Part shown: positions 3,097 through 49,176 of the stretch, piece after piece
Layout: every line of letters begins with the position of its first letter
How positions within the stretch are numbered: the stretch's first letter is position 1
Origin: an uncultured Acidobacteriota bacterium
GTDB lineage: Bacteria > Acidobacteriota > Vicinamibacteria > Vicinamibacterales > CAVVIG01
DNA: 64,000 nt
Assembly: GCA_963825245.1 (NCBI GenBank)
Contig: CAWGSJ010000013.1
Span: forward strand, 226,537-290,536
Reading direction: 5' to 3'
Notes under the pieces: model-generated
The model's input: only the letters and a program-made list of their open reading frames with translations
Told to the model about the DNA's origin: nothing
Database searches by the model: none
Translations under genes and position numbers: made by a program

Positions 3097-3142
3097 CCAG
3101 CGGTTGGTCCATCCACGTCGCGACCAACACTAGCCGATCGAC

Positions 3143-3172
3143 GTGACCGTCCGGTCACGACCGTATGACGGC
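3143..3172 (-). promoter_or_regulatory. PHO-box-like direct repeats upstream of the GT2 gene (read on minus strand: GCCGTCATacgGTCGTGACcggACGGTCAC)
   Basis: Three 8-mers at 11-bp phasing about 50-75 nt upstream of the GT2 start; the first 8-mer matches motif copies at 4179, 10691, 12293 and 21514. Confidence 0.35.
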
Positions 3173-3251
3173 CGTGTCACATCTGGTCGTGGATCGGTAG
3201 CAACGCGTCGTTACGACCAACCCGCACAATGACACCGGAGGACCATCCCGG

Positions 3252-3710
3252 ATGCCGGTGACCATCGCGATGTCGCGCGCAAGCGCATCGCCCTCATCGC
3301 ACACGACAACCGCAAGGACGACCTGCTCGACTGGGCGCGCTACAACCGCGGGACGCTGAGCGGCCACGAGCTCTACGCCACCGGGACCACCGGCGTGCGC
3401 CTCGCGACCGAGCTGCACCTGCCGGTGATCACGTTTCTGAGCGGTCCGCTCGGCGGCGATCAGCAGGTCGGCGCCGCGATCGCGGAAGGGCGACTCGACT
3501 TCGTGATCTTCTTCTGGGATCCCGCTCGAGCCGCACCCGCACGACGTCGACGTCAAGGCGTTGCTCCGCATCGCCGTGGTCTACAACGTGCCGATCGCGT
3601 GCAATCGCGCGACAGCCGACTTCCTGCTGTCGTCGCCGTTGATGGAGCGCAGCTACGAACGGCGCCTCGTGGAACGGCCGGACGTGGTGTCCGGCATGCC
3701 GATCGGTTAG
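3252..3710 (+). CDS. mgsA: Methylglyoxal synthase (about 2 frameshifts in this assembly)
   Basis: [22 protein letters not shown] ... LYATGTTG ... [29 protein letters not shown] matches the MgsA catalytic region; C-terminal part ([34 protein letters not shown]) is in another frame after a C-homopolymer near 3527. Confidence 0.8.
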
Positions 3711-3712
3711 GT

Positions 3713-4110
3713 TCAGGACGTCTTCTTGAGCGGCTCGAGCAGGATGAACCAGCTCTCGCAGTCGGTTCGCGAACCGCCGCCGAGCGTCACGGTGAAGGCG
3801 AGGTTCAGCGACGCCACCTCCCACCGCTGCGTCGCGCGCGTCCCCTGGAGGATGACGCGGTACGGCTTCAGGAGGTTGTCGGCCGAGTCGTGATCGCGAT
3901 GCGCGTCCTGCACGCCTGGAAAGACGGCGAACTCACGGCGCGGCCCAGATGGACCTCGAACTGTCCGACGCCGTTGACGACGTGATCGTAGACCCGCTCG
4001 CCGTAGCGGCCGGTCGCCGGTTCCTGGCACGACTGCCAGTTGCCTTCCAGGATGTTCTGCAGCTGGCTCGACGTCGAGCTGGAAGCGCGATTCCGGCGTC
4101 TGGGCGGACG
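3713..4110 (-). CDS. Hypothetical protein (frameshifted; family not recognised)
   Basis: Protein-like sequence split over two minus-strand frames (...QLQNILEGNWQSCQEPATGRYGERVYDHVVNGVGQFEVHLGRA / EFAVFPGVQDAHRDHDSADNLLKPYRVILQGTRATQRWEVASLNLAFTVTLGGG...); no start codon found in the N-terminal frame. Confidence 0.35.
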
Positions 4111-4178
4111 CTCTCGAACGCGGCTACCCCAGCAGCCGACAGAGGCCGATCACGAAACTGATGGATGGCCGCACGGGT

Positions 4179-4186
4179 ATGACGGC
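4179..4186 (-). promoter_or_regulatory. PHO-box-like half-site GCCGTCAT (minus orientation), upstream of the 3713-4110 gene
   Basis: ttctGCCGTCATAC on the minus strand; 11/12 identical to the copy upstream of the GT2 gene. Confidence 0.3.
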
Positions 4187-4378
4187 AGAATAACCCGGCT
4201 CGGGCCCGGTGTAACCCACATTTAACAGCTTCGATACGGAAGCGAAACGTCCGCCGGATACTGTCGACTGTAGAGCGCCACGACGGAGGTCACGGACAGT
4301 GGCGACAGCGACGCCCGGCATCCGGGAGTGATCGCCTCGCCGACACAGCTTCCGTGCCCTCCGCCGTGGCGCTCGTTC

Positions 4379-5070
4379 CATATGCCCAGGCACCGTGTTC
4401 TCATCGTCGAGGACGAGCACGACATCGCCGGACTGATCAAGCACACGCTCGAGCGTACCGGCGAGGCCGAGGCGCACATCGTCGGCACGGGTGACGATGC
4501 GCTGAAGGCGGTCGCGGCGCGCCGCCCGACCTGATGATCCTCGACCTCAACCTGCCGGTGTTGAGCGGCCTCGAGGTCTGCCGCATCCTGCGCGGACGCC
4601 CCGAGGGACGGCACCTGCCGATCATCATGCTGACGGCGCGCACCAGCGAGAACGACCGCGTCAGCGGCCTGGATCTCGGGGCGGACGATTACGTCACCAA
4701 GCCCTTCAGCCTGCGGGAACTGACGTCGCGCGTCCGCGCCGTGCTGCGACGCAGCGGCCGCCCCGACGAAGCGGCCGCCGATCAATTACCGCGGCGATCG
4801 CCTGACCGCCGATTTCGACGCCGTCGCCGTCGCCGTCGACGGCGATCAGATACGGCTCACGCGCCGCGAGTTCGAGCTGCTCCGCTACCTCGTCATGAAC
4901 AAGAACCGGGTCGTGTCACGCGACCGGCTGCTCGAGCGGGTCTGGGGTTACGATCGGCAGGTGGAAACGCGATCCGTTGACGTGCACGTCGGCCGCCTGC
5001 GGAGCAAGCTCGGCACGGCGGGCCGGCAGATCGAGACCGTCGTCGGCCTCGGCTATCGTTTCATCGACTG
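4379..5070 (+). CDS. OmpR/PhoB-family response regulator (REC plus winged-helix domains); 2 frameshifts
   Basis: [15 protein letters not shown] ... [17 protein letters not shown] ... [44 protein letters not shown] closely parallels E. coli PhoB; winged-helix C-terminus ([31 protein letters not shown] ... GLGYRFID) is in another frame. Confidence 0.8.
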
Positions 5071-5283
5071 AGTTTCGATCACCCGCCAGCCGGATTCCTG
5101 CAGCTGCAACGTTTCACGGGCGAACAGCGCGAGCGCGCGCTCCACCCGGTGCCAGTCCTGATAGTGGTCGAGCCGCTGGAGCTTCGAGTCCTCCTCGAGC
5201 CGTATTTCCCAGCCCAGCCCCCCGGTCCGGACTATGGAATATCGACGTTCGTGATTGGCCTGGCGCAGCGTGAGGGCGAACAT
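5053..5283 (-). CDS. Hypothetical small protein (77 aa)
   Basis: GGGAG ribosome-binding site 5 nt upstream of the ATG at 5283; non-repetitive sequence MFALTLRQANHERRYSIVRTGGLGWEIRLEEDSKLQRLDHYQDWHRVERALALFARETLQLQESGWRVIE. Confidence 0.45.
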   Translation of the reverse strand: MFALTLRQANHERRYSIVRTGGLGWEIRLEEDSKLQRLDHYQDWHRVERALALFARETLQLQESGWRVIETQSMKR

Positions 5284-5384
5284 GGAGGCTCCCAAAGAGA
5301 AGCCGGAATCTTGCACCCCGCCGCGGCCCGGACGAAGTAAATTCTTTGTAACACGCAGCCAGCTCGACACGACTCGATGGAGGA

Positions 5385-5826
5385 TTGGCCATGCCAACGG
5401 CCCAGAGTTTCCGGAATCACGCCCGAATCGTCCCGGCGTACCACGTCGGCGTGTTCGTTCCCTTCCTGGCGAACTTCATTTGGGCAACCTACCGATTGAT
5501 CGGCATGTTCAGCGGCGAAACGTTTATTGCGTTCCTGGTGTCGATCGCGCTGCTGCTGATGTTCTTCTCGCTGCGCGTGCAGGTGCTGACCGTCCAGGAT
5601 CGGGTGATCCGGCTCGAGATGCGCCTGCGGCTGCGCAACGCGCTGCCGCCCGACCTGCAGGACGCAGATCAGCGGCGTGTCGCACAAACAGCTCGTGGCG
5701 CTGCGGTTCGCAAGCGACGCTGAGCTGCCCGCTCTCGTGCGCGAGGTGCTCGCGGGAACGCTCAAGACACAGAAAGAAATCAAGGCTCGCGTGCGTGAGT
5801 GGCAGGCGGACTATCTCCGAGCGTGA
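5385..5826 (+). CDS. Hypothetical membrane protein (2 predicted TM helices); 1 frameshift
   Basis: GGAGG RBS 7 nt upstream of the ATG at 5385; hydrophobic segments VGVFVPFLANFIWATY and FIAFLVSIALLLMFFSL; C-terminus continues in another frame to the TGA at 5826. Confidence 0.5.
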
Positions 5827-5885
5827 CTCGGGGACTCGAGCTTGCCGCGCCGAAGCTCGATGCAATGTCAGGGAGCGAAGGCGGA

Positions 5886-5908
5886 GCGGACCTGAAGGTC
5901 CGCCCTAC
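5886..5908. repeat. REP-like hairpin GCGGACC-TGAA-GGTCCGC plus CTAC tail
   Basis: 7-bp GC stem with TGAA loop; the CTA of the tail is the stop codon of the minus-strand gene. Same architecture as copies at 47618, 53222, 53261 and 54336. Confidence 0.6.
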
Positions 5909-7387
5909 TTGCGAAGGCTGCGGAGGATCTTCGGCGTGATGAACCACCGCAGCGCGCCCGGGCCGGCGGGAGGCAGCGTGTCGAAATCGATCCGGCAGAC
6001 CGCGCCCTTCTTGAACTCGAGAGGGTGGCGCGATCCGATCAGCCGCGCGCCGAGCTCGCCGATGCCGGGCTCGTGACCGACGAGCGCAATGCGCGAGCGG
6101 CGCGACTGTTTTTCGAGATCGGCCAGGACGGCCTGATAGGTGCCACCCGGCGACAGCGACTCGATGACGACGATCGGCGGACGTGGCTCGAACGTGCTGG
6201 CCACGGCATCGGCCGTTTGGCGCGCACGTATCAACGGGCTGGTGAGCACGACGTCGAAAGCCACGCCGAGCCGCAGCGAGTCCGCGGGCCTCCTTTCGAA
6301 GGCGCGCGATGCCGCGCTCGGTCAGCGGCCGCTTCGAGTCGTCGGGCCACGCGTCGCCGCGTTCCTCCGCGATCCCGTGCCGAATCAGGTACAGCTCGTA
6401 GCCGGCCGGCATCGCCTTATCCGGCGCGCCGGGACGCTGACTGGTCTTCGTGGGAACGCTGCGGCGGGTCAGCGCCGCCTCCGCGGTAGCGCTTCGGCGC
6501 GCCAAGCGGTCGCAAATGTCGATGAGCGTTTGCCGCTCACGGACGTAGCGCGCGTGCAGGCGCCGGCAGCTCTCCTCGAGCGACATCAGCACCGTGTCGA
6601 GGTCGCGCCACATCGACACGCTTGGCGGCGTCAGCGAAGCCTGCACGCCCCGGACATGATCGATGAGAATCTGGTGATCGTGCAGCCGGCCGAGCACCTC
6701 TTGCATCCGTTTCAACGTGCGCAGCTCCTTCGTGCTCTTCAGGCCGCGCGCCTCGACGTCGAGCTCGAGGCCGTAGCGCAGCTTCTTGAGCGCGATCCGC
6801 GCCGCGTGCAGCCGCTCGGCCAGGTAGACCGCTCCGGCCGTGTCGATGGCGTGCCGCAGCGCGAGCGCCCGCCGGCTGACACGCGCGTCGAGCGCCCAGC
6901 GCCAGGCGCGGCGCGTCTGGGCATCCTCCGGGCCCTCGAGCTTGCGGACGGCACGGTCGAGCTTGCGCACGATTCGACGGAAGGCGGCCGCCGTCTGCTT
7001 GGCGGGCATTTCCGCGCGTGCCTCGTCCCGCGTGGCGCGCGCCGCCTCGCGAACCAGCCGCAGCGCGGGCTCGGCGAAACGGCCAGATTCGTGCAGCTCG
7101 GCTATCAGGAGCAACATGACGTCCGCCTCGCGGACGCGCCCAAGCCGCCTCGTCACCTTACGCAGCTGGTGTGACAGCTTTGTGACGGACCCGCCGTCCA
7201 GCTGCAGCACGGGCAGCAGCTCCCGGAGCCTTCGCGTAGAGACGCGAGTCCGGTGAACGGCTCGTTGATCGCGGGTTTCAACGCCTGGCATCGCGCGGGA
7301 GAAACGCTCGAGGCGGGCGCGCAACAGAACGTAACGACTCGGTAACACCGACATGCTTAAGATGGGCGAAACGGAAATTATAGTCAA
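5905..7387 (-). CDS. CHAD-domain protein continuous in frame with a SixA-like phosphohistidine phosphatase (1 frameshift inside the SixA part)
   Basis: N-terminal ~320 aa have CHAD features (VHRTRVSTRRLRELLPVL ... AARIALKKLRYGLEL ... RMQEVLGRLHDHQ); then YELYLIRHGIAEERGD ... VVLTSPLIRARQTAD ... ALVGHEPGIGEL is a histidine-phosphatase (SixA) domain. No stop separates the two parts in this assembly. Confidence 0.6.
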
Positions 7388-7408
7388 TTCGCGTTAAGCT
7401 CATCCAGT

Positions 7409-8958
7409 ATGCGCCTTGCGGCCATCGACATCGGCACTAACTCGCTGCACATGATCGTCGTCCGGGTGCGGCCGGATCTTTCCTTCGAAGTGATCGACCG
7501 GGAGAAGGAAATGGTCAGGCTGGGGGCCGGCGGCCTCGACGGCCGCGCGCTCACGCCCGAGGCGATGCAGGCCGCGCTCCAGGTCCTGTCCAAGTTCCGA
7601 CGGTTGGCAGAATCGCACACGGTTGACCACATTGTCGCGGTCGCGACCAGTGCCGTGCGCGAAGCCGAAAACGGCGGCGAGTTCCTGAAGACGGTCGTCG
7701 CGGAGACGGGGATTCGGCCGCGGGTGATATCCGGCACCGAAGAAGCGCGCCTCATCCACATGGCGGCGGCATACGGCGTCGGTGCGGCCGGCGAGGTCCT
7801 GGTGGTGATCGACATCGGCGGTGGCAGCGTCGAGATCACGCGCGGCGCGGGGCCGGCGATGGAAAGCGGGCGCAGCTTCAAGCTGGGCGTGATCAGGCTT
7901 ACCGAGCGCTTCGTCAAGTCGGATCCGATGTCGCCGCGCGAAGAGCGGAAGCTGGTGCGGCATATCGACGCCGACGTCGACGAGCACATCCAGCGCATCA
8001 AGCGCGCCGGGTTCGATCGCGTCGTCGGCACGTCAGGAACGATCCTGAGCCTCGGGGCGATCGCCGCCGGACACCACAGCCGCGGCGGGGTCGCCACGCT
8101 GCGCAACCGCCGCGTCGCGGCCAAGCAGGTGCACCGGGTGCGCCGAACGATGACGTCGATCGGCCTCGAGAAACGCGTGCGCGTGCCGGGACTGGAGCCG
8201 CGGCGCGCCGACCTCTCGCCTGCCGGCGCGGTGCTGCTCGACACGCTGCTGCGCCGTCTCGGGGCCGAAGAGCTCACACTCTGCGACCTGTCGCTGCGTG
8301 AAGGCGTCGTCCTCGATTACATCGCGCGGCACCGGAAGGAAATCGCGCAGGCCGATCGGTATCCGGACGTTCGCCGGCGCAGCATCATCGAGCTCGCCGA
8401 GCGGTGCAGCTACTGGCCGGAGCATGCCCAGCAGATTGCGCGGCTGTCGACGACGCTGTTCGATCAGACGCGGGCGATCCACGGCCTCACCGACAAGGAC
8501 CGCGAGTGGCTGGAGTACGCGGCGATCCTGCACGACGTCGGCGTGCACATCAGCTACGAACGCCACCACAAGCACTCCGAGTACCTGATTCGCAATGGCG
8601 ACCTGCGCGGCTTCGAGCCCGAGGAAATCGAAACCATCGCGCTGGTCGCCCGCTATCATCGCCGCGCCACTCCCAAGAAGCGGCATTCCGTGCTGCGCGG
8701 GTTCTCCGGCCGGCGCCGCCGCACCATCCGGACGCTGGCGGCGATCCTGAGGCTCGCGGAAAGCCTCGATCGCAGCCATGCCCAGACGATCAGCGGCGTC
8801 GAACTGCACGACCGCGGCGAGGACGCGCTGCTGCAGCTGCGGACCAAGAGCGACGCCGAGCTCGAGTTGTGGGCGGCCAACCGGCATGCCGTCCCGTTCG
8901 AGCGACTCATTGGCAAACCCCTTCGTGTCGAGGTGAGCAGGACGACCGCGTATGTTGA
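7409..8958 (+). CDS. ppx: Exopolyphosphatase / guanosine pentaphosphate phosphohydrolase (Ppx/GppA) with HD domain
   Basis: MRLAAIDIGTNSLHMIV, DIGGGS and the HD region (LHDVGVHISYERHHKHSEY) are Ppx/GppA hallmarks. The ORF as assembled runs on to 9199 over the next gene, so the true stop is probably near 8934-8958 (an indel is suspected). Confidence 0.8.
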
Positions 8959-9650
8959 ACAACCTGACAAAGCCGCACGAGCACCCCGGGAAACTGTTCG
9001 TCGTCGAAGGAATCGACGGGTCGGGAAAGACCACCCAGCTGGGACTCCTCGCGAAGTGGCTGAGCGCCGAAGGCCACCGGGTGTTCGTCACGGAATGGAA
9101 CTCGTCCGCGCTGGTCAAGGCGGCGACGAAGACCGGCAAGAAAAAGAACGCGCTGACACCGATGACGTTCAGCCTGCTGCACGCCACGGACTTCGCTGAT
9201 CGGCTGCTGTACAAGATCATCCCGCCGCTCAAGGCAGGCATGATCGTGCTGGCGGATCGTTATACCTATACGGCGTTCGCCCGCGACGTGACCCGCGGCG
9301 TCGACCGGCAGTGGGTCCGCGACCTGTACAGCTTCGCGGTGCGGCCCGACCTGGCGCTCTACTTCCGCGTGCCGATCGACGTGTCGCTGGATCGCCTGAT
9401 GGCGCGCCGCGTCAAGCTCAAGTTCTACGAAGCCGGCATGGATCTCGGCTGGAGCACGAACCCGATCGAGAGCTTCCGGCTCTTCCAGGGCAAGGTGCTC
9501 GAGGAGTACGATCGCATCGTCGACGAGTTCGACCTGGAGGTCGTCGACGCGGTCGGCAGCATCACCGAGCAGCAGCGCTACGTTCGCGGCCTGATCGCGC
9601 CGCGGCTGGCCATGGCCAACGAGGAGATCCACGATGAGCAACCCGTCTGA
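8952..9650 (+). CDS. Thymidylate-kinase-family P-loop kinase, divergent from canonical Tmk
   Basis: LFVVEGIDGSGKTTQ P-loop and ADRYTYTAFAR (DRY motif); AGGACG RBS upstream. The canonical dTMP-binding REPGG is replaced by TEWNSS. Confidence 0.65.
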   Translation: MLNNLTKPHEHPGKLFVVEGIDGSGKTTQLGLLAKWLSAEGHRVFVTEWNSSALVKAATKTGKKKNALTPMTFSLLHATDFADRLLYKIIPPLKAGMIVLADRYTYTAFARDVTRGVDRQWVRDLYSFAVRPDLALYFRVPIDVSLDRLMARRVKLKFYEAGMDLGWSTNPIESFRLFQGKVLEEYDRIVDEFDLEVVDAVGSITEQQRYVRGLIAPRLAMANEEIHDEQPV

Positions 9651-10387
9651 TCCCGGCGAGCACTCCGAGATCCAGGCCGGCCAGTATTACGGCAGCAGCA
9701 TCCCGTACCTGCCGATCAACGGCTACCCGGGCAAGCTGATCGCCATCGAGGGAACGGACGGCGTCGGCCGCACGACGCAGATTCAGCTGCTGCGCGAGTG
9801 GCTCGAGGTGCGCGGCTACGGCGTCATCGAGACCGGCTGGACGCGGTCGCCGTTGATGCAGCCGACCATCGAGCTGGCCAAGTCCAGCAACACGCTGAAC
9901 AAGCTGACGTTCGTCCTGCTCTACGCGACCGACTTCGCCGATCGGCTCGAGAAGGAAATCATCCCGGCACTCAAGGCGGGCTTCGTCGTGCTGTCGGACC
10001 GCTACATCTTCACCGCGCTGGCCCGCGCCGGCGTCCGCGGCATCGATCGCGCCCTGGCTGCGCGGCCTGTACGGCTTCGCGATCGCGCCGCATATGGTCT
10101 TCTACCTGAAGGTCGACGTCGACACGCTGATCGGCCGCATCCTCGAATCGCGCGGCATGGACTTCTGGGAATCGGGCATGGACATGAAGGCGGCCGACGA
10201 TATCTACGACAGCTTCCGGCTGTACCAGAACAAGCTGCTGCGCGAGTACTCGTCGATGGCCGACGAGTTCCATTTCAGGACGGTCGACGCGCGGCGCTCG
10301 ATCGAGCAGATCCAGGACGAGCTGCGCAAGCAGATGTCCGCCTTCCTCGAACCGGTCGACAAACCCGCCGAAGCGCTCTCCCGCTGA
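9634..10387 (+). CDS. Second thymidylate-kinase-family paralogue with a degenerate P-loop (GVGRTT); 1 frameshift near 10070
   Basis: LIAIEGTDGVGRTTQ and SDRYIFTALAR; the C-terminal half (YLKVDVDTLIGRILESRGMDFWESGMDMK...) parallels Tmk-like 1 (YFRVPIDVSLDRLMARRVKLKFYEAGMDLGW...). Start overlaps the upstream gene by 17 nt. Confidence 0.6.
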
Positions 10388-10390
10388 CCG

Positions 10391-10457
10391 CTGTCGTTCG
10401 TCGTTCGCGGACATCTCCGCTCGTCCATCGTTCGAACGTCGAACGTCGAACGACACG
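10391..10457. terminator. Hairpin built from tandem heptamers, (GTCGTTC)x2 ... (GAACGTC)x2-GAACGAC, between convergent genes
   Basis: Left arm ctGTCGTTCGTCGTTCgcgg and right arm cgttcGAACGTCGAACGTCGAACGACacg are reverse complements; lies 3 nt after the tmk-like stop and 10 nt after the minus-strand small ORF stop. Confidence 0.5.
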
Positions 10458-10466
10458 CCAACACTC

Positions 10467-10625
10467 CTAGATTTCGCTGTCGTCCTCGGTCGGAGCTTCG
10501 TCCTCGCCTTGATCGCCGTCTTCGGCGCTCAGAACGTCTTCGTCGTCCTCAGCCTCGAAGGTGTCGCTTTCGATCTCCTCCCCCTCGATCACTTCGGAGG
10601 CAAGGTCGTCGTCATGCTCGTCCAT
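10467..10625 (-). CDS. Small highly acidic protein (52 aa; MDEHDDDLASEVIEGEEIESDTFEAEDDEDVLSAEDGDQGEDEAPTEDDSEI)
   Basis: ATG at 10625 preceded by GGGAGAG with a 6-nt spacer; below the 60-aa cutoff of the supplied ORF track; 29 of 52 residues are D or E. Confidence 0.4.
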   Translation of the reverse strand: MDEHDDDLASEVIEGEEIESDTFEAEDDEDVLSAEDGDQGEDEAPTEDDSEI

Positions 10626-10683
10626 TGATGGCTCTCCCGACCGTTTTCGCGATCATCTTACTCCCGGCGCTGGCGCACCCTTG

Positions 10684-10710
10684 TGATGCTGCCGTCACGC
10701 TCCGTTCACA
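10684..10710 (+). promoter_or_regulatory. PHO-box-like direct repeats (tgatgctGCCGTCACgcTCCGTTCACa) about 80 nt upstream of the phytase gene
   Basis: Two 8-mers 11 bp apart; TGCCGTCACGCT is identical to the copy upstream of the GDPD gene, and gatgctGCCGTCAC is identical to the copy upstream of phoD. Confidence 0.45.
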
Positions 10711-10788
10711 TCCGCTTTACCAGCGTGCGCTTAAATCGCGCGGCGGCTCGAGTCAGCCGCATCAGGCTTTCACTTTCAGGAGAGACCT

Positions 10789-12273
10789 ATGAAGCGGTTG
10801 ACGATGTGGACGCTGACGGTGGGGGTTGGTGTCGGTGTGATGGGCGCCGTCGGCGCCAGCGGCGACGGGCCGCTCGTGCTGACGCCGGTCGTCATGACGG
10901 CGCCGCTCTTCAACTACGAGGATGCGCCGGCGACGCCCGACGCGGACGATCCGGCGATCTGGGTCGACCGCGACAACCCCCGGCGCTCGCTGGTGATCGG
11001 CACGGCGAAGGACGCCGGCCTGCTCGTCTATGACATGTCCGGCCAGCTGGTGCAGGCACTGCTGCCGCCGAACGCGCCCCACGTCTCGCCCGCGGATCCG
11101 GCGACACCGGCGGGGATCAACCTGAACCCGGACAAGCCGTGCGCGGGCAGCGACAGCCAGGAGACGTTCGGACGCTTCAACAACGTGGACATCGCGTACG
11201 GCGTGCGCCTCGGGGCGCGCTCCGGCCGAGTCGACGTGGCGGTGGTGTCGGATCGCGGTTGCGACCGGGTGCGCTTCTACAAGATCGATCCTGCGGATCC
11301 GGACGGCCCGCTCGTCGACATCACCGCCCCGAACGTGCCGCGTGTCTTCCCGGTTCGGTTCGAGCAGCCGTCAGTCCTCCAGCCGTCGGGGGCGATGGAG
11401 GGTTGGCGCGACAACCCCGTGGACGATCAGAACACGGTGTACGGCCTGACGGTGTCCCAGGGCGACGTCGACGAAATCTTTGTGTCCGAACGCGAGCGCG
11501 GGCTGGTACGTCAGCTCCAGATCGTTGCCGCGCCAGGCGGGACACTGACGTATCGACCAATTCGGACATTCCTGTTCAAGACGTCGTTCCGGCTCCGGAA
11601 CGAGCTTGGCGCGCCCTACGACTGGACGCCATGCCGAGAAGCCGCACTCGAGGAACCCCAATCCGAGGGCCTCGTGTTCGATCGAGCGAACCAGACCCTC
11701 TATGTCGCCTTCGAGACGATCGGTCTCTACAAGCTGCCGCTGAGCAGGTCGACCCCGGCAATTGTCACCGTGACCGGCAATCACCTGATCGAGCCGGTGA
11801 AGTCGTTCGGCCAGGCGTATCACGCCACTCCGGACGATGACGAGTTCGAGTGCGCGTACAGCCCGGCCGATCCGCCCGCACCCGGCGACGTTGTGGCGAC
11901 CGGCTCCGATGCCAACGCCGGCCGCTTCCTGGATGCCGACCTGGAGGGCTTGAGCATCATCGCGAGCATTCCCGGCCGGACGCTGCTGCTGGCATCGAGC
12001 CAGGGCGATTCGAGCTTTCATTTCTACGATCTCAGCCGGACGCGCACAATGCATCGCGGCGAGTTCTTCGTTGAGGGGGTGGGCGACACCGACGGCGTGC
12101 ACTACGTGCCGGTGCCGATCGGAAACCAGTACCCGCTCGGGCTGCTCGTCATCCAGAACGGCGAGGCCCCCGAACCCCCGGATACCGGCGACGTCAACGG
12201 CTTCGAGTTCGACGGGGCGACGCAGTTCCTCTACCTGGACTTCGCGGACGCGTTGAAGGCCCTGATCCCGTAG
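10789..12273 (+). CDS. Secreted beta-propeller phytase (3-phytase)
   Basis: Signal peptide (MKRLTMWTLTVGVGVGVMGAVGA); DDPAIWVD and repeated beta-propeller phytase motifs; GGAGAG RBS. Confidence 0.7.
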   Translation: MKRLTMWTLTVGVGVGVMGAVGASGDGPLVLTPVVMTAPLFNYEDAPATPDADDPAIWVDRDNPRRSLVIGTAKDAGLLVYDMSGQLVQALLPPNAPHVSPADPATPAGINLNPDKPCAGSDSQETFGRFNNVDIAYGVRLGARSGRVDVAVVSDRGCDRVRFYKIDPADPDGPLVDITAPNVPRVFPVRFEQPSVLQPSGAMEGWRDNPVDDQNTVYGLTVSQGDVDEIFVSERERGLVRQLQIVAAPGGTLTYRPIRTFLFKTSFRLRNELGAPYDWTPCREAALEEPQSEGLVFDRANQTLYVAFETIGLYKLPLSRSTPAIVTVTGNHLIEPVKSFGQAYHATPDDDEFECAYSPADPPAPGDVVATGSDANAGRFLDADLEGLSIIASIPGRTLLLASSQGDSSFHFYDLSRTRTMHRGEFFVEGVGDTDGVHYVPVPIGNQYPLGLLVIQNGEAPEPPDTGDVNGFEFDGATQFLYLDFADALKALIP

Positions 12274-12283
12274 TTGTCGATTT

Positions 12284-12313
12284 GTTGATGCTGCCGTCAC
12301 CGGTCCGTCGCAG
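12284..12313 (+). promoter_or_regulatory. PHO-box-like direct repeats (ttgatgctGCCGTCACcggTCCGTCGCA) upstream of phoD
   Basis: Same motif and 11-bp phasing as at 10684 and 21500; 35 nt upstream of the phoD ATG. Confidence 0.45.
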
Positions 12314-12346
12314 GCTTCGACCATCCTCTGGCCATCCGGAGGAACC

Positions 12347-13622
12347 ATGGCTCTGTCGAAATCACGCGCATCGTCGATTGATCGACGACGTTTTCTGCAG
12401 TACACGTGGCAGGGCGTCGGGACGAGCCTGTCGCTGGCGCTCGTCTCCGGCCGCGAGCTGTTTGCGGCCCCCTCGCTCGGAAGGAATCCGTTCACGCTGG
12501 GCGTCGCCTCGGGGGATCCCTCCTCGGAGGGGATCGTGCTCTGGACGCGGCTCGCGCCCGAGCCAGCCAATCCGGCAAGCCTCGGCCGTCGGTCGATCCC
12601 CGTTGGCTGGCGCGTCGCCACCGACAGCCACATGCGTCACCTCGTTGCCCGCGGCCATGCCGTCGCCTCTCCCGAGCTCGCACATTCAGTGCACGTGGAA
12701 GTGGATGGCCTGGAGCCCGAGCGCGACTACTTCTATCAGTTCGACCTGCGCGACGAGGAGAGCCGCATCGGGCACTTCCGCACCACGCCTGCGCCGCACG
12801 AGCATGTCCGGCAGCTGCAGTTCGCCTTCGCCACCTGCCAGGACTGGCCGAGCGGCTTTTACACGGCATACCGGGACATGCTGCAGAACGATCTCGACGT
12901 GGTGCTCCACCTGGGCGACTACACCTACGAGTACGCGATCGGCGGCATGACCGGGCGTGGGATGCCGGTCCCGAGCGGATTCGGGCGGGACCGTGGACCT
13001 CGAAACCTACCGCCTGCGGCGAGGCGCTGCGATGCGCCGAAGCGTTGACGGGCAGTTATACGATGCTCGGAGAGGACCAGGAACGCTGGCTCGCGCGCGG
13101 TTTTCGTCAATCGCTCGCGCGCTGGAACTTCGTCGCGCAGCAGCTCCTGATCGCCGAGCTGGAGCACACGCTGCCCGGTACCCTGACGAGTGGTACTGGA
13201 ACGACGCATGGGATGGCTACCCGCTCGCGCGCAAGCGGATGCTGACCGATGTGGTCCAGAGCCGCGTCAGCAACCCGGTCTTCCTGACCGGCGACTGGCA
13301 CTCGACGTTCGCGAACGAGTTGAAGCTGGACTTCAAGAATCAGGCCTCACCAGCCGTGGCGACCGAATTCGTGACGCCGGCCATCACCACCGGCGGCGAC
13401 GGCACACCCTACGGTCCGTACTACTCGCCGATGATCCCGTTCAACCCGCACATCAAGTGCTACGAAGGCGACAAGCGCGGGTACTTCAAGGCGACCGTCA
13501 CGCCTCGAGAGACCCGGCTCGATCTCCGGTTCGTCACGAGCGTGGAAGATCCGAATGGAGTGGGTTACACGGAGCGATCGTTCGTCGTCGAAGACGGCAG
13601 GCCTGTCATCGAGATGTCCTGA
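12347..13622 (+). CDS. phoD: Alkaline phosphatase D family (PhoD), Tat-secreted; about 3 frameshifts
   Basis: Twin-arginine signal (RRRFLQYTWQGVGTSLSLALVSG); LGVASGDPS, HLGDYTYEY and C-terminal LTGDWHSTFANEL ... FVTPAITTGGDG are PhoD signatures; the pieces lie in 3 frames. Confidence 0.75.
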
Positions 13623-13632
13623 GGCGATCGGT

Positions 13633-14130: not shown

Positions 14131-14133
14131 GAG

Positions 14134-14637: not shown

Positions 14638-14700
14638 TGGTGCCGAAGCTTTTACCACCCGGGCGCGACAGACTTGTAAACAAAGTCACGGCAGCGAGAG

Positions 14701-16131
14701 CTACAAGAGCGTTCCCCGCAGCACGACGAGCGCGACCGAGAAGTAAATCACCAGTCCCGTGACGTCGACCAGCGTCGCCACAAACGGCGCTGAAGACGCC
14801 GCCGGATCGAATCCGAGACGTTTCAGCAGAAACGGCAGCAGCGATCCGCTGAGCGTGCCCCAGAGAACGACACCAACCAGCGACACCGAAACGGTGACCG
14901 CCACGAGCAGCCAGTGCGGACCGTAGATATCCGAGAACGCGGACCACAAGCTGATGCGCAGGAACCCGATGCTGCCGAGGATCGCCCCGAGCGCCAAGCC
15001 AGCCAGGACCTCGCGCCGCATGACGCGCCACCAGTCGCGGACGCCGACCTCCCCCAGCGCCAGTGCGCGAATGACGAGGGTGGCGGCCTGCGACCCCGAG
15101 TTGCCGCCGCTCGAGATGATCAGCGGCACGAACAGCGCCAGCACGACCGCCTTCGAGATCTCCGCTTCAAACACGCCCATCGCGGTGGCGGTGAGCATCT
15201 CCCCCAGGAACAGCGCGGTCAGCCACCCGGCCCGCTTTTGAATCATCCGCCCGAACGCGATGCTGATGTACGGCTCGTCGAGTGCTTCCGAGCCGCCGAT
15301 GCGCTGAATGTCGCGGGTCGCGGTCGCTTCGGCGACGTCGAGCACGTCGTCGATGGTCACGATGCCGATCAGCATGCCCGCGGTGTCGGTGACCGGCAGC
15401 GCGGTGCGATCGTACTGACGGAACACGCCGACGGCGGTTTCCTGATCGTCGGTGGCCTTCAACGCCACGAAACGGCGATCCATCAGCTCCGCAACGCGGC
15501 GATCGAGCGGCGCCAGCAGGAACTCTCGGATGCGCACGTCGTCAACCAGGAGATTGCGGCTGTCGACGACGTAGATCACGTTCAGCGTCTCGCTGTCCTG
15601 CCCGTGGGCGCGGACGTAGTCGAGGACCTCGCGGACCGTCCACTCCTCGCGGGCGGCGACATAATTCGGCGTCATCAGCCGGCCGACCGAGTGTTCTGGA
15701 TAGCCGAGCAGCGTCACCGCAACCGCACGCTCGGCCGGCGTCAGCAGCGCCAGCAGCTGCCGCGTCGCCTCGGCCGGCAGCTCTTCGAGGAACAGGGTCC
15801 GATCATCCGGCGCCATGTTGTTCAGCAATCCGGCGACGTCGTCCTGCGCCATCCCTTTCAGCAGCGCTTCCTGCGACTCCTGCGACAGATATTGGAATAC
15901 CGCTGCCGCATCCTTGCGCGGCATCACCCGAAAGACGACGACCTGATCCTCGAGGCTCAGCGCGGTGAGCAATGTGGCGACATCGCCGGCTTCGCGGTTG
16001 CGGAGCATGTCGCGCAGCCGCGCGTAGTCGCGCGCCCGCAGCACCTCGGCAAGTTCTTCGGCCGGCCTGGCGATCTCGCGAATCGCCGCAACCGCCTCCT
16101 CCCGATGGGGACCATTCAGCTGTTCTTCCAT
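14701..16131 (-). CDS. mgtE: Magnesium transporter MgtE (MgtE_N, 2x CBS, TM domain)
   Basis: MgtE_N (DVATLLTALSLEDQVVVFRVMP), CBS pair, and TM domain with PLIISSGGNSGSQAATLVIRALALGEV. In this assembly it is continuous with the upstream ORF (no stop before 16131). Confidence 0.75.
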   Translation of the reverse strand: MEEQLNGPHREEAVAAIREIARPAEELAEVLRARDYARLRDMLRNREAGDVATLLTALSLEDQVVVFRVMPRKDAAAVFQYLSQESQEALLKGMAQDDVAGLLNNMAPDDRTLFLEELPAEATRQLLALLTPAERAVAVTLLGYPEHSVGRLMTPNYVAAREEWTVREVLDYVRAHGQDSETLNVIYVVDSRNLLVDDVRIREFLLAPLDRRVAELMDRRFVALKATDDQETAVGVFRQYDRTALPVTDTAGMLIGIVTIDDVLDVAEATATRDIQRIGGSEALDEPYISIAFGRMIQKRAGWLTALFLGEMLTATAMGVFEAEISKAVVLALFVPLIISSGGNSGSQAATLVIRALALGEVGVRDWWRVMRREVLAGLALGAILGSIGFLRISLWSAFSDIYGPHWLLVAVTVSVSLVGVVLWGTLSGSLLPFLLKRLGFDPAASSAPFVATLVDVTGLVIYFSVALVVLRGTLL

Positions 16132-18231
16132 TTGCTTCAGCGCTGCTCTGACGACGTCGGCGTGATGCACGTGCGGACCGACAGCCTTGACGGCGTCGAG
16201 CCACAAGCGGTGAATCAGATCGAGGTCGCCGGAAGTGAAGGACGGGGGATGAGCTCCGAGATGATAGGTGTCCGATCGGCCGCTGCGGTGGTGGATCACC
16301 AGCCTGACGTCGAGCGCGTCGGGCTTGTCGGCCCGCTCCCAGGCCTCGCCGAGCAGGCGCGCCTGGTCTGCGGCGGAGAGCGTCGCCGACTCGCCGACGA
16401 ACACGTCCGACGCGCGAAGGCGAATCACGGCGCCGACGATCGCGTCGACCACGCTGCGGGTGGGAACAATCAGCAGCCGCACCGGCCGGCCAACCCGTTC
16501 GGCGAGTGCGACGACGTCCGAGAGCAGCTTCCGCTCGTAGGAAGTCGGCGTGGTCCTCCCCGCGTCTTCCTCGTTGACGTCGACGTCGAGCAGACGCGCC
16601 GTCATGACGACGACGTCGCGATCGCCGGGCGTCTGCAGAGCCGCCATGACATGCGCCAGCAGGTGCGGGTTGCGCACCGGCACCAGCAGGCTGCCGGGAC
16701 GCGCTTCGATCTGGTCGGGCGAAAGCTCGGCGGCGAGCATCAGGTCGAACGCGGTTTCATCCGTGCCGATATCGACTGGCGGCCGGTGGCGAGCCGCCAC
16801 GGTGAACCACGCCGCGAGCATCGTCATCAGCGTCACGGCGGCGATCGCAGCGATATCGCCGGTGACGATCATCCCGACCGCGCAGGCGACGGCCACCGCG
16901 CGCGCGACGACGAGCCCGGCAGCGAAGTGCCGGCGGCCGACACGGAGGTCGCCTGGGGCGGTGTAGGGCGTCGGCCCCTGGCGCGCACGGCGGAGGCGCA
17001 TGATTGCGGCAATCGACAGCACCAGGGTGGTCGCGATTGCCACGCCATAGGCGCGTGCCAGCCACGACACTCGCCCGCCGCTCGCGAGCACCGCGACCGT
17101 CGTCGCCATCACCGTGAGGTCGATGGCGCGTGCCGGCGTGCCAAAGCGGCTGTGCAGCGACGTGAGACCAGGGGGGAGGGTGCCTTCCGCCGAGAAGCGA
17201 TGCATCATCTGCTCGGCGTCGATCACTGACGCGTGAGCGGCCGGCAGCAGCACCAGCGCCGCAGCCAGCGCCAGGGCGAGCGCGACGAGGTTCCGCACCG
17301 ACGCCGGGGCCGCGAGATGCTGCGACAGCCCGGCTAGCGGCGCATTGGCCCATACCTCCTGTTCACTGGCCGGGACGAGCCAGACGAAGAGGAACGTTCC
17401 CAAGACAGTCGCCACGACGGTGAACAGAACCGTGGCGATGGCGGTTCGTCGCAGCGCCTGCACGCGGGGCGGCGGGAGCTCGGGGGCCGCGTGGGAGAGC
17501 GCTTCCCCGCCGCCGACGACCGGCAGCGTCAGGGCGAATCCGAGCAGCCACGCCAACGCCGTATCAGCCGGAAACCATCCGGTTCTCGCCACTGGCGCCG
17601 GCAGGACCAGCGACGAAGAGACGGCGCCGTGACGCGCCAGCGTGACAAGAGCCCAGACGATCGTGACGAGGACGATGCCAACCCCAATCCAGCTCGCCCG
17701 CGCAAGCGCGTCGCGGCCAATCTCTCGCCCGAGCCGAGTCTGCAGCCACAGCACGCCGAGCGCGCCCATCGCAATCAGGGTCGCCAGATCCTCGGCCCGG
17801 AGATATCCGGTCAAGCTGCGGCCGGCGATCGCCGATGCCGCCACGCTGGCGGCGTAATGTCCGATCAGCACGCACGCCAGTGCGCCGAGCAGGATGCGCT
17901 CCACCAGCGCCGCCGCCTTCGCGACTCCGGCGGCGCGCGGTCCGAACGCACGCGTCACCGAGCCGACGAATCCACCGGGAATCAGCAGCGACCAGCTTTC
18001 GATGTCGACCGATCGTGCGAACGCGGCGAGCACCGCGGCGGCGAGCACGAACCAGCCGGCGGAATCGCCTACTGCCGCCCGCGCCAGACCCGAGATGAAA
18101 AACACGGCGACGCCGAATTGCGCGATCGCCAGTGCGGCGGCCTTCCACACCGACATGAACGGCAGGAACGCCGTCGCCGACAGGACGACGCGAATCGGAT
18201 GACGGGACCGGATGGGTGAGAACGGAGCCAT
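16132..18231 (-). CDS. APC-superfamily permease with a C-terminal USP-like domain
   Basis: About 12 TM helices, then VVVMTARLLDVD ... VGRPVRLLIVPT ... VFVGES (UspA-like). Same reading frame as mgtE; fusion versus lost stop is unresolved. Confidence 0.55.
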
Positions 18232-18265
18232 CGGGGGCCAACGGGCGGCTTGCCGCCCAGCATGG

Positions 18266-19656
18266 TCAGTGGATGCTTTGCTTGCCGGAGAATTCCTTGA
18301 CGACTTCCCCGATGACGGCCTTCGCGTCGCCGAACAGCATCAGCGTGTTGTCGGCGAAGTAGAGCTCGTTCTCGATCCCCGCGAAGCCGGGGTTCATGCT
18401 GCGCTTGATGGCGATGACGGTCCTGGCCTTGTCGGCGTCGATAATCGGCATGCCGTAGATGGGGCTCTTCGGATCGTTGCGCGCGGCCGGATTCACGACG
18501 TCATTCGCCCCGATGACGACCGCCACGTCGACCTGGGGCATCTCCGGGTTGATGTCGTCCATCTCGACGAGGCTTTCGTACGGGATTTCCGCCTCGGCGA
18601 GCAGCACGTTCATGTGGCCGGGCATCCGGCCGGCAACGGGATGGATCGCGAACTTCACGTTGACGCCGCGCTTGGCGAGCTCGTCGCGCAGGTCGCGGAC
18701 GCGGTGCTGGGCCTGGGCGACCGCCATCCCGTAACCCGGGATGAAGACAACGGTGTTCGCGTTCTCGAGCAGGTGCATCACGTCCTCGGGCGTCGCCGAC
18801 TTCGCGGTCCGCTGTTCGACCGCTCCAGCGGCCGCCTGCACCTGGCCGAAGGCGCCGAACAGCACGTTGGCGAACGAACGGTTCATCGCGCGGCACATGA
18901 TGATCGACAGGATCAGGCCAGACGATCCGTCGAGCGCGCCGGCCGTGATGAGCAGCTTGTTTTCCAGCACGAACCCCATCGCCACGGCCGACAGGCCGGC
19001 ATACGCGTTCAGCAGCGAGATGACCGTCGGCATATCGGCCCCGCCGATCGGCAGGACGAGCAGGACGCCGAAGAGGAGCGACAGCACGATCACGATCGGA
19101 AACAGCCACGACGTGGCCGGCCGGAACACCAGCACGATCGCCATCACGATCGCGACGCCGAGCAGGCCCAGATTGATCACGTTCTGGTTGCGATAGGTCA
19201 GCGGCCGCGTCGGCAGGACTTCCTGCAGCTTGCCCGCGGCCATCAGGCTGCCGGTGCAGGTCAGATAGCCGAGCAGCACTTCAGCACCGATCGCGGCCAT
19301 GCGGAAGGTCGTCAACTGGCCTTCGTCGAGCCAGGTGTAGTACTTGGCGGTGCCGACCAGGCCCGCTGCCAGGCCGCCGAACGCATGCGAGAGCGCCGTC
19401 CGCTGCGGCACCGCCGTAAGCGGCACCCACGACAGCGGGACGCCGACCAGCGTGCCCGCCACCACCGCGATGGCGATCCAGTGATACGCGACGATGTGCG
19501 GGTAGAGGAGCGTGCCGGCAACGGCGAGCACCATCGCCCCGACGCCCGCAAAGACACCGCGGCGCGCGGTATCGGGTCGCTCATCCACTTCAACGACAGG
19601 ATGAACGCGCCGGCGGAGACGAGGTAAATGAGCTGGGTGAGCTGCTCGACGGTCAC
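18266..19656 (-). CDS. pntB: NAD(P) transhydrogenase subunit beta (1 frameshift near 19575)
   Basis: N-terminus MTVEQLTQLIYLVSAGAFILSLKWMSDP in one frame, the remainder (GGADMPTVISLLNAYAGLSA ... IPGYGMAVAQAQH ... HPVAGRMPGHMNVLLAEA) in another; strong match to E. coli PntB. Confidence 0.85.
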
Positions 19657-19946
19657 TTCGCCGGCTCGCGTTTCTTGAACATCTTCAGCATCCGATCGGT
19701 GATCAGAAAGCCGCTGACGATGTTGGTCGTGGACGCGAACACGGCGACGGCGCCAAGGACGGTGCTGAGCGTGGTGTGCTGCTCGCCGGTGATGATGATG
19801 GCGCCGACGATGGCAATCGCCGAGATGGCGTTGGTCAGTGACATCAGCGGCGTATGGAGCAGCCGCGAGACCCGCCGGATGACGTCCAGCCCGATGAACG
19901 TCGCGAGCATGAACACGAACAAGCCGGAGATGAAGTCGAGCTGCAT
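19653..19946 (-). CDS. pntA: NAD(P) transhydrogenase alpha subunit part 2 (small membrane subunit)
   Basis: 97-aa, 3-TM protein directly upstream of pntB with a 4-nt overlap; typical PntAB layout. Confidence 0.75.
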   Translation of the reverse strand: MQLDFISGLFVFMLATFIGLDVIRRVSRLLHTPLMSLTNAISAIAIVGAIIITGEQHTTLSTVLGAVAVFASTTNIVSGFLITDRMLKMFKKREPAK

Positions 19947-19986
19947 TCTGCCGGGGAATTTATCACACGTGGGGGAGGATCGATCT

Positions 19987-20083
19987 GCGTTCTCCGTTCT
20001 ACGTTCTACGTTCTGCGTTCGAAAGCAGAACGATGAACGATGAACGAAGAACGCAGAACGCAGAACGCAGAACGCAGAACGAC
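19987..20083. repeat. Long hairpin of tandem heptamers, (NCGTTCT)x5 - gaaagc - (AGAACGN)x8, between the GDPD gene and pntAB
   Basis: Left arm gcgttctccgttctacgttctacgttctgcgttc and right arm agaacgatgaacgatgaacgaagaacgcagaacgcagaacgcagaacgcagaacg are imperfect reverse complements. Confidence 0.6.
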
Positions 20084-20134
20084 GAAGAGAGCGCTGTAGG
20101 CGACCCGTTCAGGGTCGCCAGCATGCCATCTTCG

Positions 20135-21411
20135 CTACTTCAGACCCATGCAGTTGGCGTAGTACGTCACCGGCGCGGCCCAGTCCGAGAACACGCCGAG
20201 GATGCCGACCTGGCGCGCCAGCACGTCGATCACCTTGTAGAGATCGCCCTCGCGCTTGATGGCCGGGTCGATCGTCTGGTAGTAGAACCCGTTGTTGCCG
20301 TCGGCCAGGATGCCCGAGCGCTCGAGCGTCCAGGTGATGAGGTCGAGGCCGGCCGCCTTGGCGTTGCGCGCGGCCTGCGAGGGCACGATGCGGTTCTGGC
20401 CGTCGAGCGCCAGCAGCGCGAAGGTCGGCGGCGCCCAGATGTTGATCCCCATCAGCTTGTAGCCGGCGAGGTCGGCGAAGGTCGGCAGCTCCGCGACCAC
20501 GTTGGCGTCGTCCAGATACACCGCCTGGCGTGCCGAACGCCGGCTCCCGTTTGATCCAGTAGAGGACGTCGTTGATGTTGAACGACTGCGGGAAGACACG
20601 GCGCGGCGAGACGCCGGCCGCCTTGTACTCGTCGATCATCTTCTGCGCGTACTGCTCCTGCGTGAACCCGTTGAACGGCATCGTCACGCTCGGCACTCTT
20701 CAGCTCTGGCGTCATGCTTCGACGCCGAGCTTCTTGAAGAGCTCGATGCTCTCGGCGTGCGTCAGCAGCTCGCCGCTGGTCGGGCCGGAGTACAGGTCGG
20801 TCCGGAAGTTCGGCGTGCCGCCGAGGAACTGCTGCGGCGTCAAGCGCGCGCGGGTCGAACGCGTCCATCTTGCCGCGCAGGGTCTTGAACTCGGCCAGCG
20901 TGATATCGCTCGTCCGGCACTCGGCCGATGCCGGCTGAAGCAGCGCGCCGCCGGGGGCGATGACGGCCGGCGTGAACGGCTTCGTGCACTTGGCCGGCGA
21001 GCGGCGTCACCAGGATGTTCGTGGTGGTGTGCAGATCGTTCTGCGCGTGGCGGCAGACCAGCTGCGAGATCCTTGGTGAAGGTCACGTCGCATTCGAGGA
21101 TGCCCGCGCCCATGCCGCGCGCCCGCTTCGTACGATTCGCGCGTGTGCTCGGGAAACTGCAGCGCCGCGCCGCGGTGGCCGATTGAGAAATTGCTTTTCG
21201 AGAACGGGCCGGCCGAGCAGCTCTGCAGCTGACGCTTCAGCCAGCTGTCCTCCATGTCGTTGACGAGAAAGAACGGCCGCGGGCCGAGCTGGATGGCCTC
21301 CGACCGATGCCGATGGTCGCGGTCGTCGTCATCGGCGGCCGCGGCGGCGGTCATGCTCGCCGCTCCGGCAAGCGTCGACGCAAGGAGAAGTGAGAGGATT
21401 CGCTGTCGCAT
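20135..21411 (-). CDS. Secreted GlpQ-like glycerophosphodiester phosphodiesterase; at least 3 frameshifts
   Basis: GAAGGAG RBS and signal peptide ([26 protein letters not shown]); [11 protein letters not shown] catalytic motif; GlpQ-like middle and C-terminal pieces ([24 protein letters not shown] ... ITWTLERSG ... [18 protein letters not shown]) in other frames. Confidence 0.75.
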
Positions 21412-21499
21412 CAAGGGGCTCCTTCGCTGGATGGAGTCGGCGCCGTGGACCGGCGCCGACTGACGGAATGTGAGGATGCTAGCGGCGTGGTGTAGCGAA

Positions 21500-21526
21500 C
21501 GGGCAACGGCAGCGTGACGGCAATCG
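21500..21526 (-). promoter_or_regulatory. PHO-box-like direct repeats (minus strand: gattGCCGTCACgctGCCGTTGCc) about 100 nt upstream of the GDPD gene
   Basis: Shares the 12-mer TGCCGTCACGCT with the phytase promoter; a further TGTCAAC/TGTTCGA repeat pair follows at 11-bp phasing. Confidence 0.45.
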
Positions 21527-21562
21527 AACAATTCGTTGACATCGCCGCAACGCCCGGCCCCC

Positions 21563-22666: not shown

Positions 22667-22912
22667 GTGCGGCCCTCAGCAGTGGTTGAAAAACGCAGTC
22701 ACCGCCACGAAATCTAGGGAGCCGCCGTAACAGCTTCACGACGAGGGCGACAGAATCGTGTAAACAGTGCAAAGTTCAGCGCGGCCCGGAATTCAGAGTG
22801 ACTCGAAGCTATCTCACAAAACCAGCTGACCTGCGTCGCGAGCGAGCGCGCGAGCGAGCCCCGCGAACGGAGCGCGCCGGCGCCGCGGCGCGCGAGAGAG
22901 CGTGTCGGGGAG

Positions 22913-45682: not shown

Positions 45683-45703
45683 TTTTATACCGAGCCCCCA
45701 CGG

Positions 45704-49008: not shown

Positions 49009-49176
49009 CTGGTCTTCTTTTTCCACCGGCGGCGGGGCCCCACCCCCGCCGCGAACTTACGCTGATGCCTCGCCTCGGATTCGCTCATCCTCGGCTCGGC
49101 ATGGCCGCAGGCGCTGCGCTGGATTTTACACGGCCTTAACAAGCCGCGGCGTGTGGCTGGGATAGTCTGCAGAGAG

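Follow-up and report, generated by a model that had tools for sequence, protein, structure and literature searches.

Candidate PHO boxes upstream of phosphorus genes, a glycosyltransferase gene and a PhoB-like regulator gene in an uncultured member of the Vicinamibacterales

Introduction

Does an uncultured acidobacterium control its phosphorus genes through operators of the kind that PhoB binds in Escherichia coli? The question is raised by a 64,000-nucleotide (nt) stretch of DNA, hereafter the window (contig CAWGSJ010000013.1 of assembly GCA_963825245.1, positions 226,537 to 290,536 of the forward strand), from a bacterium of the Vicinamibacterales lineage CAVVIG01 (Acidobacteriota), in which the 8-mer GCCGTCAY recurs upstream of genes for a family 2 glycosyltransferase (GT2), a hypothetical protein, a phytase, PhoD and a glycerophosphodiester phosphodiesterase (GDPD). 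An original prediction, made from the sequence alone, took these sites for candidate PHO boxes. The PHO box of E. coli consists of two 11-nt direct-repeat units with the core CTGTCAT, bound head to tail (PMC4415409); our literature search brought up no description of such a box in Acidobacteria. We argue here that arrays upstream of six genes of the window are, with a probability of about 0.8, PHO boxes, i.e. operators for a phosphorylated PhoB-type response regulator of the winged-helix OmpR family. By all appearances the window holds a real, ordinary Pho regulon whose mechanism would be the textbook one.

Promoter architecture of the candidate boxes

GCCGTCAY was confirmed at all five sites of the original prediction, on the strands given there. 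In the window, whose G+C content is about 67%, it occurs 22 times against 10.8 expected, and none of the 17 copies beyond these five sites has a phased partner, nearly all of them lying in sequence with strong codon periodicity. Since most copies are thus intragenic and lack such a partner, the 8-mer alone is uninformative. A second unit does follow 11 nt on at four of the five sites, as had been claimed: the pairs are GCCGTCAC/CCGTTCAC upstream of the phytase gene, GCCGTCAC/GCCGTTGC upstream of the GDPD gene, GCCGTCAT/GTCGTGAC upstream of the GT2 gene and GCCGTCAC/TCCGTCGC upstream of phoD, the phoD partner first proposed, CCGTCGCA, being one base out of register. The strings said to be common to phytase and GDPD (TGCCGTCACGCT) and to phytase and phoD (gatgctGCCGTCAC) are correct.

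These pairs are parts of longer arrays with a composite layout, in which two to four direct 7-mer repeats (consensus C-C/T-G-T-C/T-A-C/T), separated by 4-nt spacers and hence phased at 11 nt, are followed by 10 nt and a -10 hexamer TAnnnT. The gap between the last repeat and the -10 hexamer is exactly 10 nt at six promoters of the window and in relatives. The half-site consensus derived from 20 training units (C/T-C-G-T-C/T-A-C/T) is related to CTGTCAT.

The top composite score of the window, 27.6, belongs to the array TTGTGAT gctg CCGTCAC gctc CGTTCAC atcc GCTTTAC (10681..10720, plus strand) upstream of the gene for a 494-residue beta-propeller phytase (10789..12273, plus strand; Pfam PF02333, E = 1.7e-30), with the gap cagcgtgcgc and the -10 hexamer TTAAAT (10731..10736); the same layout is seen in related loci L019, L020, L016 and L011. 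The GDPD gene (20135..21411, minus strand), which carries about six frameshifts, is preceded by TTGTTCG attg CCGTCAC gctg CCGTTGC ccgt TCGCTAC (21492..21531, minus strand; score 27.5), the gap accacgccgc and TAGCAT (21476..21481). Pfam and NCBIfam searches with the raw pieces of its open reading frame (ORF) gave no match; the repaired protein matches Pfam GDPD (E = 5.1e-19). Upstream of the gene for the 255-residue GT2 glycosyltransferase (2329..3096, minus strand; Pfam PF00535, E = 2.6e-30) lies ATGTGAC acgg CCGTCAT acgg TCGTGAC cgga CGGTCAC (3143..3182, minus strand; score 17.6), followed after gtcgatcggc (10 nt) by TAGTGT (3127..3132), 30 nt before the ATG at 3096. For the frameshifted phoD gene (12347..13622, plus strand; Pfam PhoD_N, E = 1.6e-31, and PhoD, E = 2e-13), the array TGTTGAT gctg CCGTCAC cggt CCGTCGC (12283..12311, plus strand) scores 14.7, and the -10-like hexamer CATCCT (12322..12327) follows 10 nt (aggcttcgac) after its last repeat.

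Two boxes had been overlooked in the original prediction. One, TGTTTAC acga TTCTGTC gccc TCGTCGT gaag CTGTTAC (22727..22766, minus strand; score 20.2), with TAGATT (22711..22716) 44 nt before the ATG at 22666, adds as a new target the gene for a secreted 367-residue protein with a predicted metallophosphoesterase fold (21563..22666, minus strand). The other lies at the promoter of the response regulator gene (4209-4264; see below).

An inverted repeat within the GT2 array, CGTGACCG-tc-CGGTCACG (3143-3160), was considered as a palindromic operator and rejected, the middle repeat not being kept in 71 orthologous promoters; it arises because two GTSAC cores adjoin.

Over-representation of the composite layout

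The model used to scan the window, at about 128,000 positions, combined two matrices, one for the half-site and one for the -10 hexamer, whose sole training set was the phytase promoters of 10 other genomes; 200 Markov shuffles served as the null. A first matrix of 45 columns including spacers, with which phoD was the third-best match and the null maximum was 26, proved noisy and was therefore replaced by this model. Six positions scored at least 16, compared with 0.3 in the shuffles, and four scored at least 18, compared with 0.095. The phytase promoter ranks first (27.6; inflated, since it is orthologous to some of the training promoters, which the other window promoters are not), followed by GDPD (27.5), the new site of the 367-residue secreted protein (22711-22755; 20.2), a match within the CHAD gene (19.3), GT2 (17.6), an intragenic match at the end of a permease gene (17.3), a doubtful match upstream of arsC (15.2) and phoD (14.7).

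The composite architecture is thus far beyond chance. In a genome of 67% G+C, a codon-like 8-mer rich in G+C may recur by chance, which would account for the mostly coding location of the 17 additional copies of GCCGTCAY and fits the site at 4179-4186. As an account of the arrays, chance is improbable in the extreme, for the composite architecture is about 20- to 40-fold over-represented and is kept in promoters that are not orthologous to each other and in other genomes; it is already refuted for four of the five sites, and for 4179-4186 it is the best explanation.

The match within the CHAD gene (7155-7199, minus strand; CCGTCAC aaag CTGTCAC n10 TAAGGT) may act as an internal promoter or be inert. 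Most intragenic PhoB sites in E. coli are transcriptionally inert (PMC10294691), and intragenic matches need not be functional here either. A further weak box-like site (14649-14693, minus strand; TGTTTAC aagt CTGTCGC n10 TAAAAG) at the start of the arsC-like gene is doubtful because its -10 hexamer, TAAAAG, lacks the final T.

Conservation in related loci

The phytase is 67-76% identical to phytases from metagenome-assembled genomes of Vicinamibacterales and Acidobacteriota, and phytase orthologues in 11 other genomes of these groups have the same upstream layout. Proteobacterial phytase homologues from the same search (L006-L008, L030) have canonical CTGTCAT/CGGTCAC boxes.

For the GT2 gene, a metagenome scan yielded 80 loci with orthologues at 70-80% identity, 71 of them with enough upstream sequence. 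A score of at least 15 was reached in 38 of these 71 upstream regions on the gene strand, in 3 on the reverse strand and in none of the 71 coding sequences. Most of the 71 promoters conform to A[CT]GTGAT-n4-nCGnnnC-n4-C[CT]GTTAC-n10-TAnnCT, with unvarying spacing to the start codon. In one locus (L016) the GT2 orthologue and the phytase gene are divergent, and a separate box with a score of 25.7 precedes the GT2 orthologue. Nothing in the PHO-box reading is better conserved than the putative control of the glycosyltransferase. The original prediction had presented such control as an extension of the Pho regulon; in Proteobacteria, both Pho boxes and glycosyltransferases under Pho control are already known (PMC4796936, PMC8528852).

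Co-occurrence of half-sites in the 71 GT2 promoters peaks at lags of 11, 22 and 33 nt (23, 21 and 32 occurrences, against 1-6 at neighbouring lags). This periodicity bears on the possibility that the repeats are promoter elements for an alternative sigma factor of the extracytoplasmic function (ECF) type, for which an element kept at a set spacing upstream of a -10-like hexamer would be in keeping, and with which the lack of a sigma70 -35/-10 consensus promoter in 3000-4400 (the sole region scanned, containing the GT2 and regulator promoters) would agree. However, the last repeat, 10 nt from the -10 hexamer, is too close to serve as a -35 element, and the recurrence of two to four equivalent units every 11 nt, visible as autocorrelation peaks at 11, 22 and 33, is the signature of a tandem-binding protein and not of a sigma factor. 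An ECF-type element is therefore very improbable, and a tandem-binding regulator is the preferred reading of the arrays.

The same box is found at core Pho genes of relatives. Promoters of porin-pstS in soil metagenomes have boxes scoring 20.4, 21.2, 16.9 and 17.0, and the box upstream of pstB in L083 reads GATTCAC-gtgc-CCGTTAC-n10-CATACT. A GDPD orthologue (L044) has a four-repeat box upstream, with the layout seen at the GDPD gene of the window, and a GDPD-phytase operon (L011) is likewise preceded by a box. The presence of boxes at porin-pstS, pstB and GDPD in relatives indicates that the motif is a Pho box and not the site of another regulator. No convincing box was seen upstream of a distant PhoD-like gene in L019. 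Combining several longer metagenome loci gives the composite order Ppx (leftward), CHAD (rightward), regulator (leftward), then, rightward, the gene for a secreted DUF (domain of unknown function) protein, GT2, PHP, in some cases a second GT2, porin, and pstS, pstC and pstA. Relative to this order the window is rearranged, with mgsA between the DUF gene and GT2, and with pstB-phoU 45 kb away.

The response regulator and its promoter

The response regulator gene of the window (4382..5071, plus strand), of the OmpR/PhoB family, runs through three reading frames by way of two frameshifts. Once repaired, it encodes a full-length OmpR-family protein with a receiver and an OmpR-type winged-helix domain. 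Its two top NCBIfam models are both PhoB (TIGR02154, 226.4 bits with a cut-off of 296.2; Bacteroidetes PhoB, 211 bits, also under its cut-off), and the next families, CreB and YycF, follow at 196 bits, about 30 bits under PhoB. PhoB is its best family match, but with a score under the cut-off, no adjoining kinase and two frameshifts in the assembly the protein is only PhoB-like. In relatives its gene neighbours the GT2-PHP-porin-pstSCA genes as well as CHAD and Ppx, and the link to pst genes favours the PhoB reading.

The promoter of the regulator gene bears four repeats, GTGTAAC ccac ATTTAAC agct TCGATAC ggaa GCGAAAC (4209..4248, plus strand), with the -10 hexamer TACTGT (4259..4264; TACnnT in relatives) 10 nt after the last. 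This box is kept in 14 of 14 loci as [G/T]GTAAC cca. ATTTAAC agct TCGAYAC nnnn GCGAAAC n10 TACnnT. The core GTSAC is nearly palindromic, and the array was also considered as facing the divergent DUF gene; this was rejected, half-site scores favouring the regulator orientation in 14 of 14 loci (mean 15.3 versus 0.05). A four-repeat box at this promoter fits positive autoregulation. Positive autoregulation is known for phoB.

The site at 4179-4186, assigned in the original prediction to the hypothetical gene, lies on the other strand of the same intergenic region, just downstream of the conserved TATTCT of the DUF gene. It was rejected as a Pho box: it has no second phased repeat and no -10 hexamer, and is not kept in 13 related loci. 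It is probably a chance occurrence, so that the PHO-box reading holds for the GT2, phytase, phoD and GDPD sites and fails for this one. The hypothetical gene itself (3713-4198, minus strand), frameshifted in the window, is the DUF gene, which in relatives usually lies between the regulator gene and GT2; it belongs to a conserved family of secreted proteins of about 140 residues with the motifs NILEGNWQSC and DCESWY and without a family match. Its putative promoter, comprising TATTCT (4189-4194, minus strand) and, some 17-19 nt ahead of it, GTTACA, overlaps the regulator box.

The arrays might instead be operators of an OmpR-family regulator that does not respond to phosphate, possibly the one encoded at 4382-5071, sensing for example a polyphosphate or envelope signal and having a regulon that merely overlaps phosphorus genes. 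The score of the regulator under the PhoB equivalog cut-off and the lack of an adjacent PhoR are compatible with this, as are the variant core of its own box (TAAC, not TCAC) and its conserved neighbours CHAD and Ppx, which are polyphosphate genes. On the other hand, relatives have the box in front of pstB and of porin-pstS, the targets belong to the classical Pho genes, the half-site is similar to CTGTCAT, and PhoB models head the family matches by some 30 bits. Such a regulator is unlikely, and we prefer the interpretation of the arrays as PHO boxes.

A number of observations nevertheless weigh against this interpretation. Besides its score under the curated PhoB cut-off, the regulator gene has two frameshifts in the assembly, and neither in the window nor in the metagenome loci with this gene does a histidine kinase adjoin it. 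At phoD the score is modest and the -10 hexamer poor; upstream of pstB-phoU in the window there is no more than a weak candidate out of register (ATTTTAC acgg CCTTAAC, 49123..49140, plus strand), one position away from the regular spacing to the -10-like TAGTCT. The training sites were chosen by eye, and the model is not perfectly specific, since two of its high-scoring matches are intragenic (45716-45760, and 7155-7199 in the CHAD gene). Finally, the metagenome loci are related to one another, so that the counts obtained from them are not independent events.

Proposed mechanism and comparison with known systems

The sequences themselves show the architecture, its statistical excess and its conservation among genomes and among promoters that are not orthologous, porin-pstS included; from these we infer the identity of the binding protein, the dependence on phosphate, and activation rather than repression. 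By analogy with PhoB of E. coli, the regulator would bind the arrays as tandem dimers under phosphate limitation and recruit the RNA polymerase-sigma70 holoenzyme, the box taking the position where a -35 element is lacking. In agreement with this, no sigma70 -35/-10 consensus promoter was seen in 3000-4400, the sole region scanned. Binding would switch on phytase, PhoD and GDPD, three secreted hydrolases of organophosphates, together with the secreted metallophosphoesterase-fold protein and the GT2 glycosyltransferase, and the regulator gene itself would be activated in positive autoregulation.

The closest parallel is the PHO box of E. coli and other Proteobacteria (CTGTCAT-N4-CTGTCAT, replacing the -35 element), with which the acidobacterial arrays share 7-nt repeats, 4-nt spacers, a near-identical core (xxGTCAY), two to four units ending at a fixed short distance before the -10 hexamer, and targets that comprise phosphatases, GDPD, pst genes and the regulator's own gene. 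The spacing between PhoB site and core promoter is known to be strict (PMC10294691). The arrays described here differ in that the core is richer in G+C (CCGTCAC / CCGTTAC), the spacers likewise are rich in G+C and not in A/T, the host belongs to the Acidobacteriota, and the regulator has no adjacent PhoR. The PhoP operators of Streptomyces coelicolor, built simply or in complex form from 11-nt direct repeat units (GTTCACC; PMC2275107), likewise come from a high-G+C organism and are similar in their variable number of units; they differ in core sequence and register, and their spacing to the -10 hexamer is not set at 10 nt.

As to the glycosyltransferase, the lipid-remodelling PlcP-Agt system of marine bacteria and Pseudomonas aeruginosa (PMC4796936, PMC8528852) also has a glycosyltransferase gene that follows a Pho box at once and is coupled to a gene for a phosphoesterase. 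The lipid-remodelling enzymes Agt (GT4) and Pgt (GT21) make glycolipids from diacylglycerol. In contrast to Agt, the protein considered here is a small GT2-family protein (PF00535), and its counterpart arrangement in relatives is GT2 followed by a PHP-domain-like protein, not PlcP.

Two conserved candidate members of the regulon

In relatives (L044, L051, L085, L090 and others), the GT2 gene is followed by a gene for a 251-residue protein, with overlapping stop and start codons; the protein is read as PHP-domain-like by its CDFHVHTxWSDG motif alone. A second GT2 gene, a porin gene and pstSCA often come next. The PHP gene is absent from the window (2250-2329). The best family match of the GT2 protein is PF00535 (GT2; 106 bits), and PF13506 (GT21; 23.9 bits) is barely over its cut-off of 21.7.

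The 367-residue secreted protein has no sequence match in Pfam, NCBIfam or PDB. It starts with a signal peptide, and its sequence shows GDxxY, GD, GDND and GDSH, which are typical metallophosphoesterase motifs. An AlphaFold model (pLDDT 79, pTM 0.81) found its best Foldseek matches in the calcineurin-like phosphoesterases Lmo2642, purple acid phosphatase, SMPDL3B and Mre11 (E values of 1e-9 to 1e-7, TM-scores of about 0.45-0.48). Only this fold comparison placed the protein, and it points to a metallophosphoesterase fold. More than 5,400 close homologues from several phyla were found, the best of them 68-93% identical, from sources including Vicinamibacterales, Myxococcales, Calothrix and Candidatus Angelobacter. 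On one contig, which appears to come from a different lineage than the window source, a homologue (L112, 2745-4140) is divergent from a GDPD gene, and Pho boxes are found at both genes (scores 16.5 and 22.3).

It is tempting to speculate that the Pho regulon of Vicinamibacterales includes two conserved and uncharacterised members, namely the GT2-PHP pair, which in relatives usually lies between the PhoB-like regulator gene and porin-pstS, and the secreted metallophosphoesterase-fold family without a Pfam model. Under an orphan PhoB-like regulator without a neighbouring kinase, these could represent a new pathway to glycoconjugates made under phosphorus stress and a new phosphoesterase family that scavenges phosphate, a tentative proposal to which we give somewhat less than an even chance.

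Gene context

The genes near the boxes encode two GT4 proteins, GT2, MgsA, the secreted DUF protein, the OmpR-family regulator, CHAD, Ppx/GppA, phytase, PhoD, ArsC, MgtE, PntAB, GDPD and the 367-residue secreted protein. Those for the response regulator, PhoD, GDPD and one GT4 protein, as well as mgsA, pstB and others, are frameshifted, and reading frames were mended by hand where needed. Frameshifts affect the regions 4382-5071, 12347-13622, 20135-21411, 1311-2250, 3253-3700, 9634-10470, 43764-47565 and 49180-50006; a 1176-codon ORF (14701-18231) and other very long ORFs are intact. Either uneven indel errors of the assembly or true decay of some Pho genes, including the regulator gene, may be the cause.

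The intact ORF at 14701-18231 (minus strand) encodes an MgtE magnesium transporter with a fused N-terminal membrane region of about 700 residues that has no family match; a second, ordinary MgtE is encoded at 22941-24371. Between pntA and the end of the GDPD gene, heptamer tandem arrays of TCTACGT (x5) and AGAACGA (x8.6) at 19984-20086 face each other to form a long imperfect hairpin, after which comes a short hairpin, GGCGACCC-gttca-GGGTCGCC. A 773-residue fusion (41528-43849, minus strand) of a KdpD-like sensor (DUF4118, GAF, HisKA, HATPase) to a receiver domain and a DNA-binding domain of the OmpR type is encoded beside kdpABC. A c-di-AMP riboswitch (Rfam RF00379, 55.6 bits; 47552-47759, minus strand) is located upstream of a frameshifted permease gene and the gene for a Kup potassium transporter, and adjoins the kdp cluster.

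Significance

Acidobacteriota, of which few have been brought into culture, rank among the most abundant bacteria of soil. The type of regulation described here was to be expected; the phylum is the one in which we found none described. With a working Pho-box model (core, 11-nt phase, 10-nt gap and -10 hexamer), the phosphate-starvation regulon would become readable from metagenome-assembled genomes, and such a model would show which phytases, phosphodiesterases and transporters soil acidobacteria use under phosphorus shortage. The metallophosphoesterase-fold family and the GT2-PHP pair, a more interesting by-product of this analysis than the boxes themselves, are conserved candidates that deserve biochemical study.

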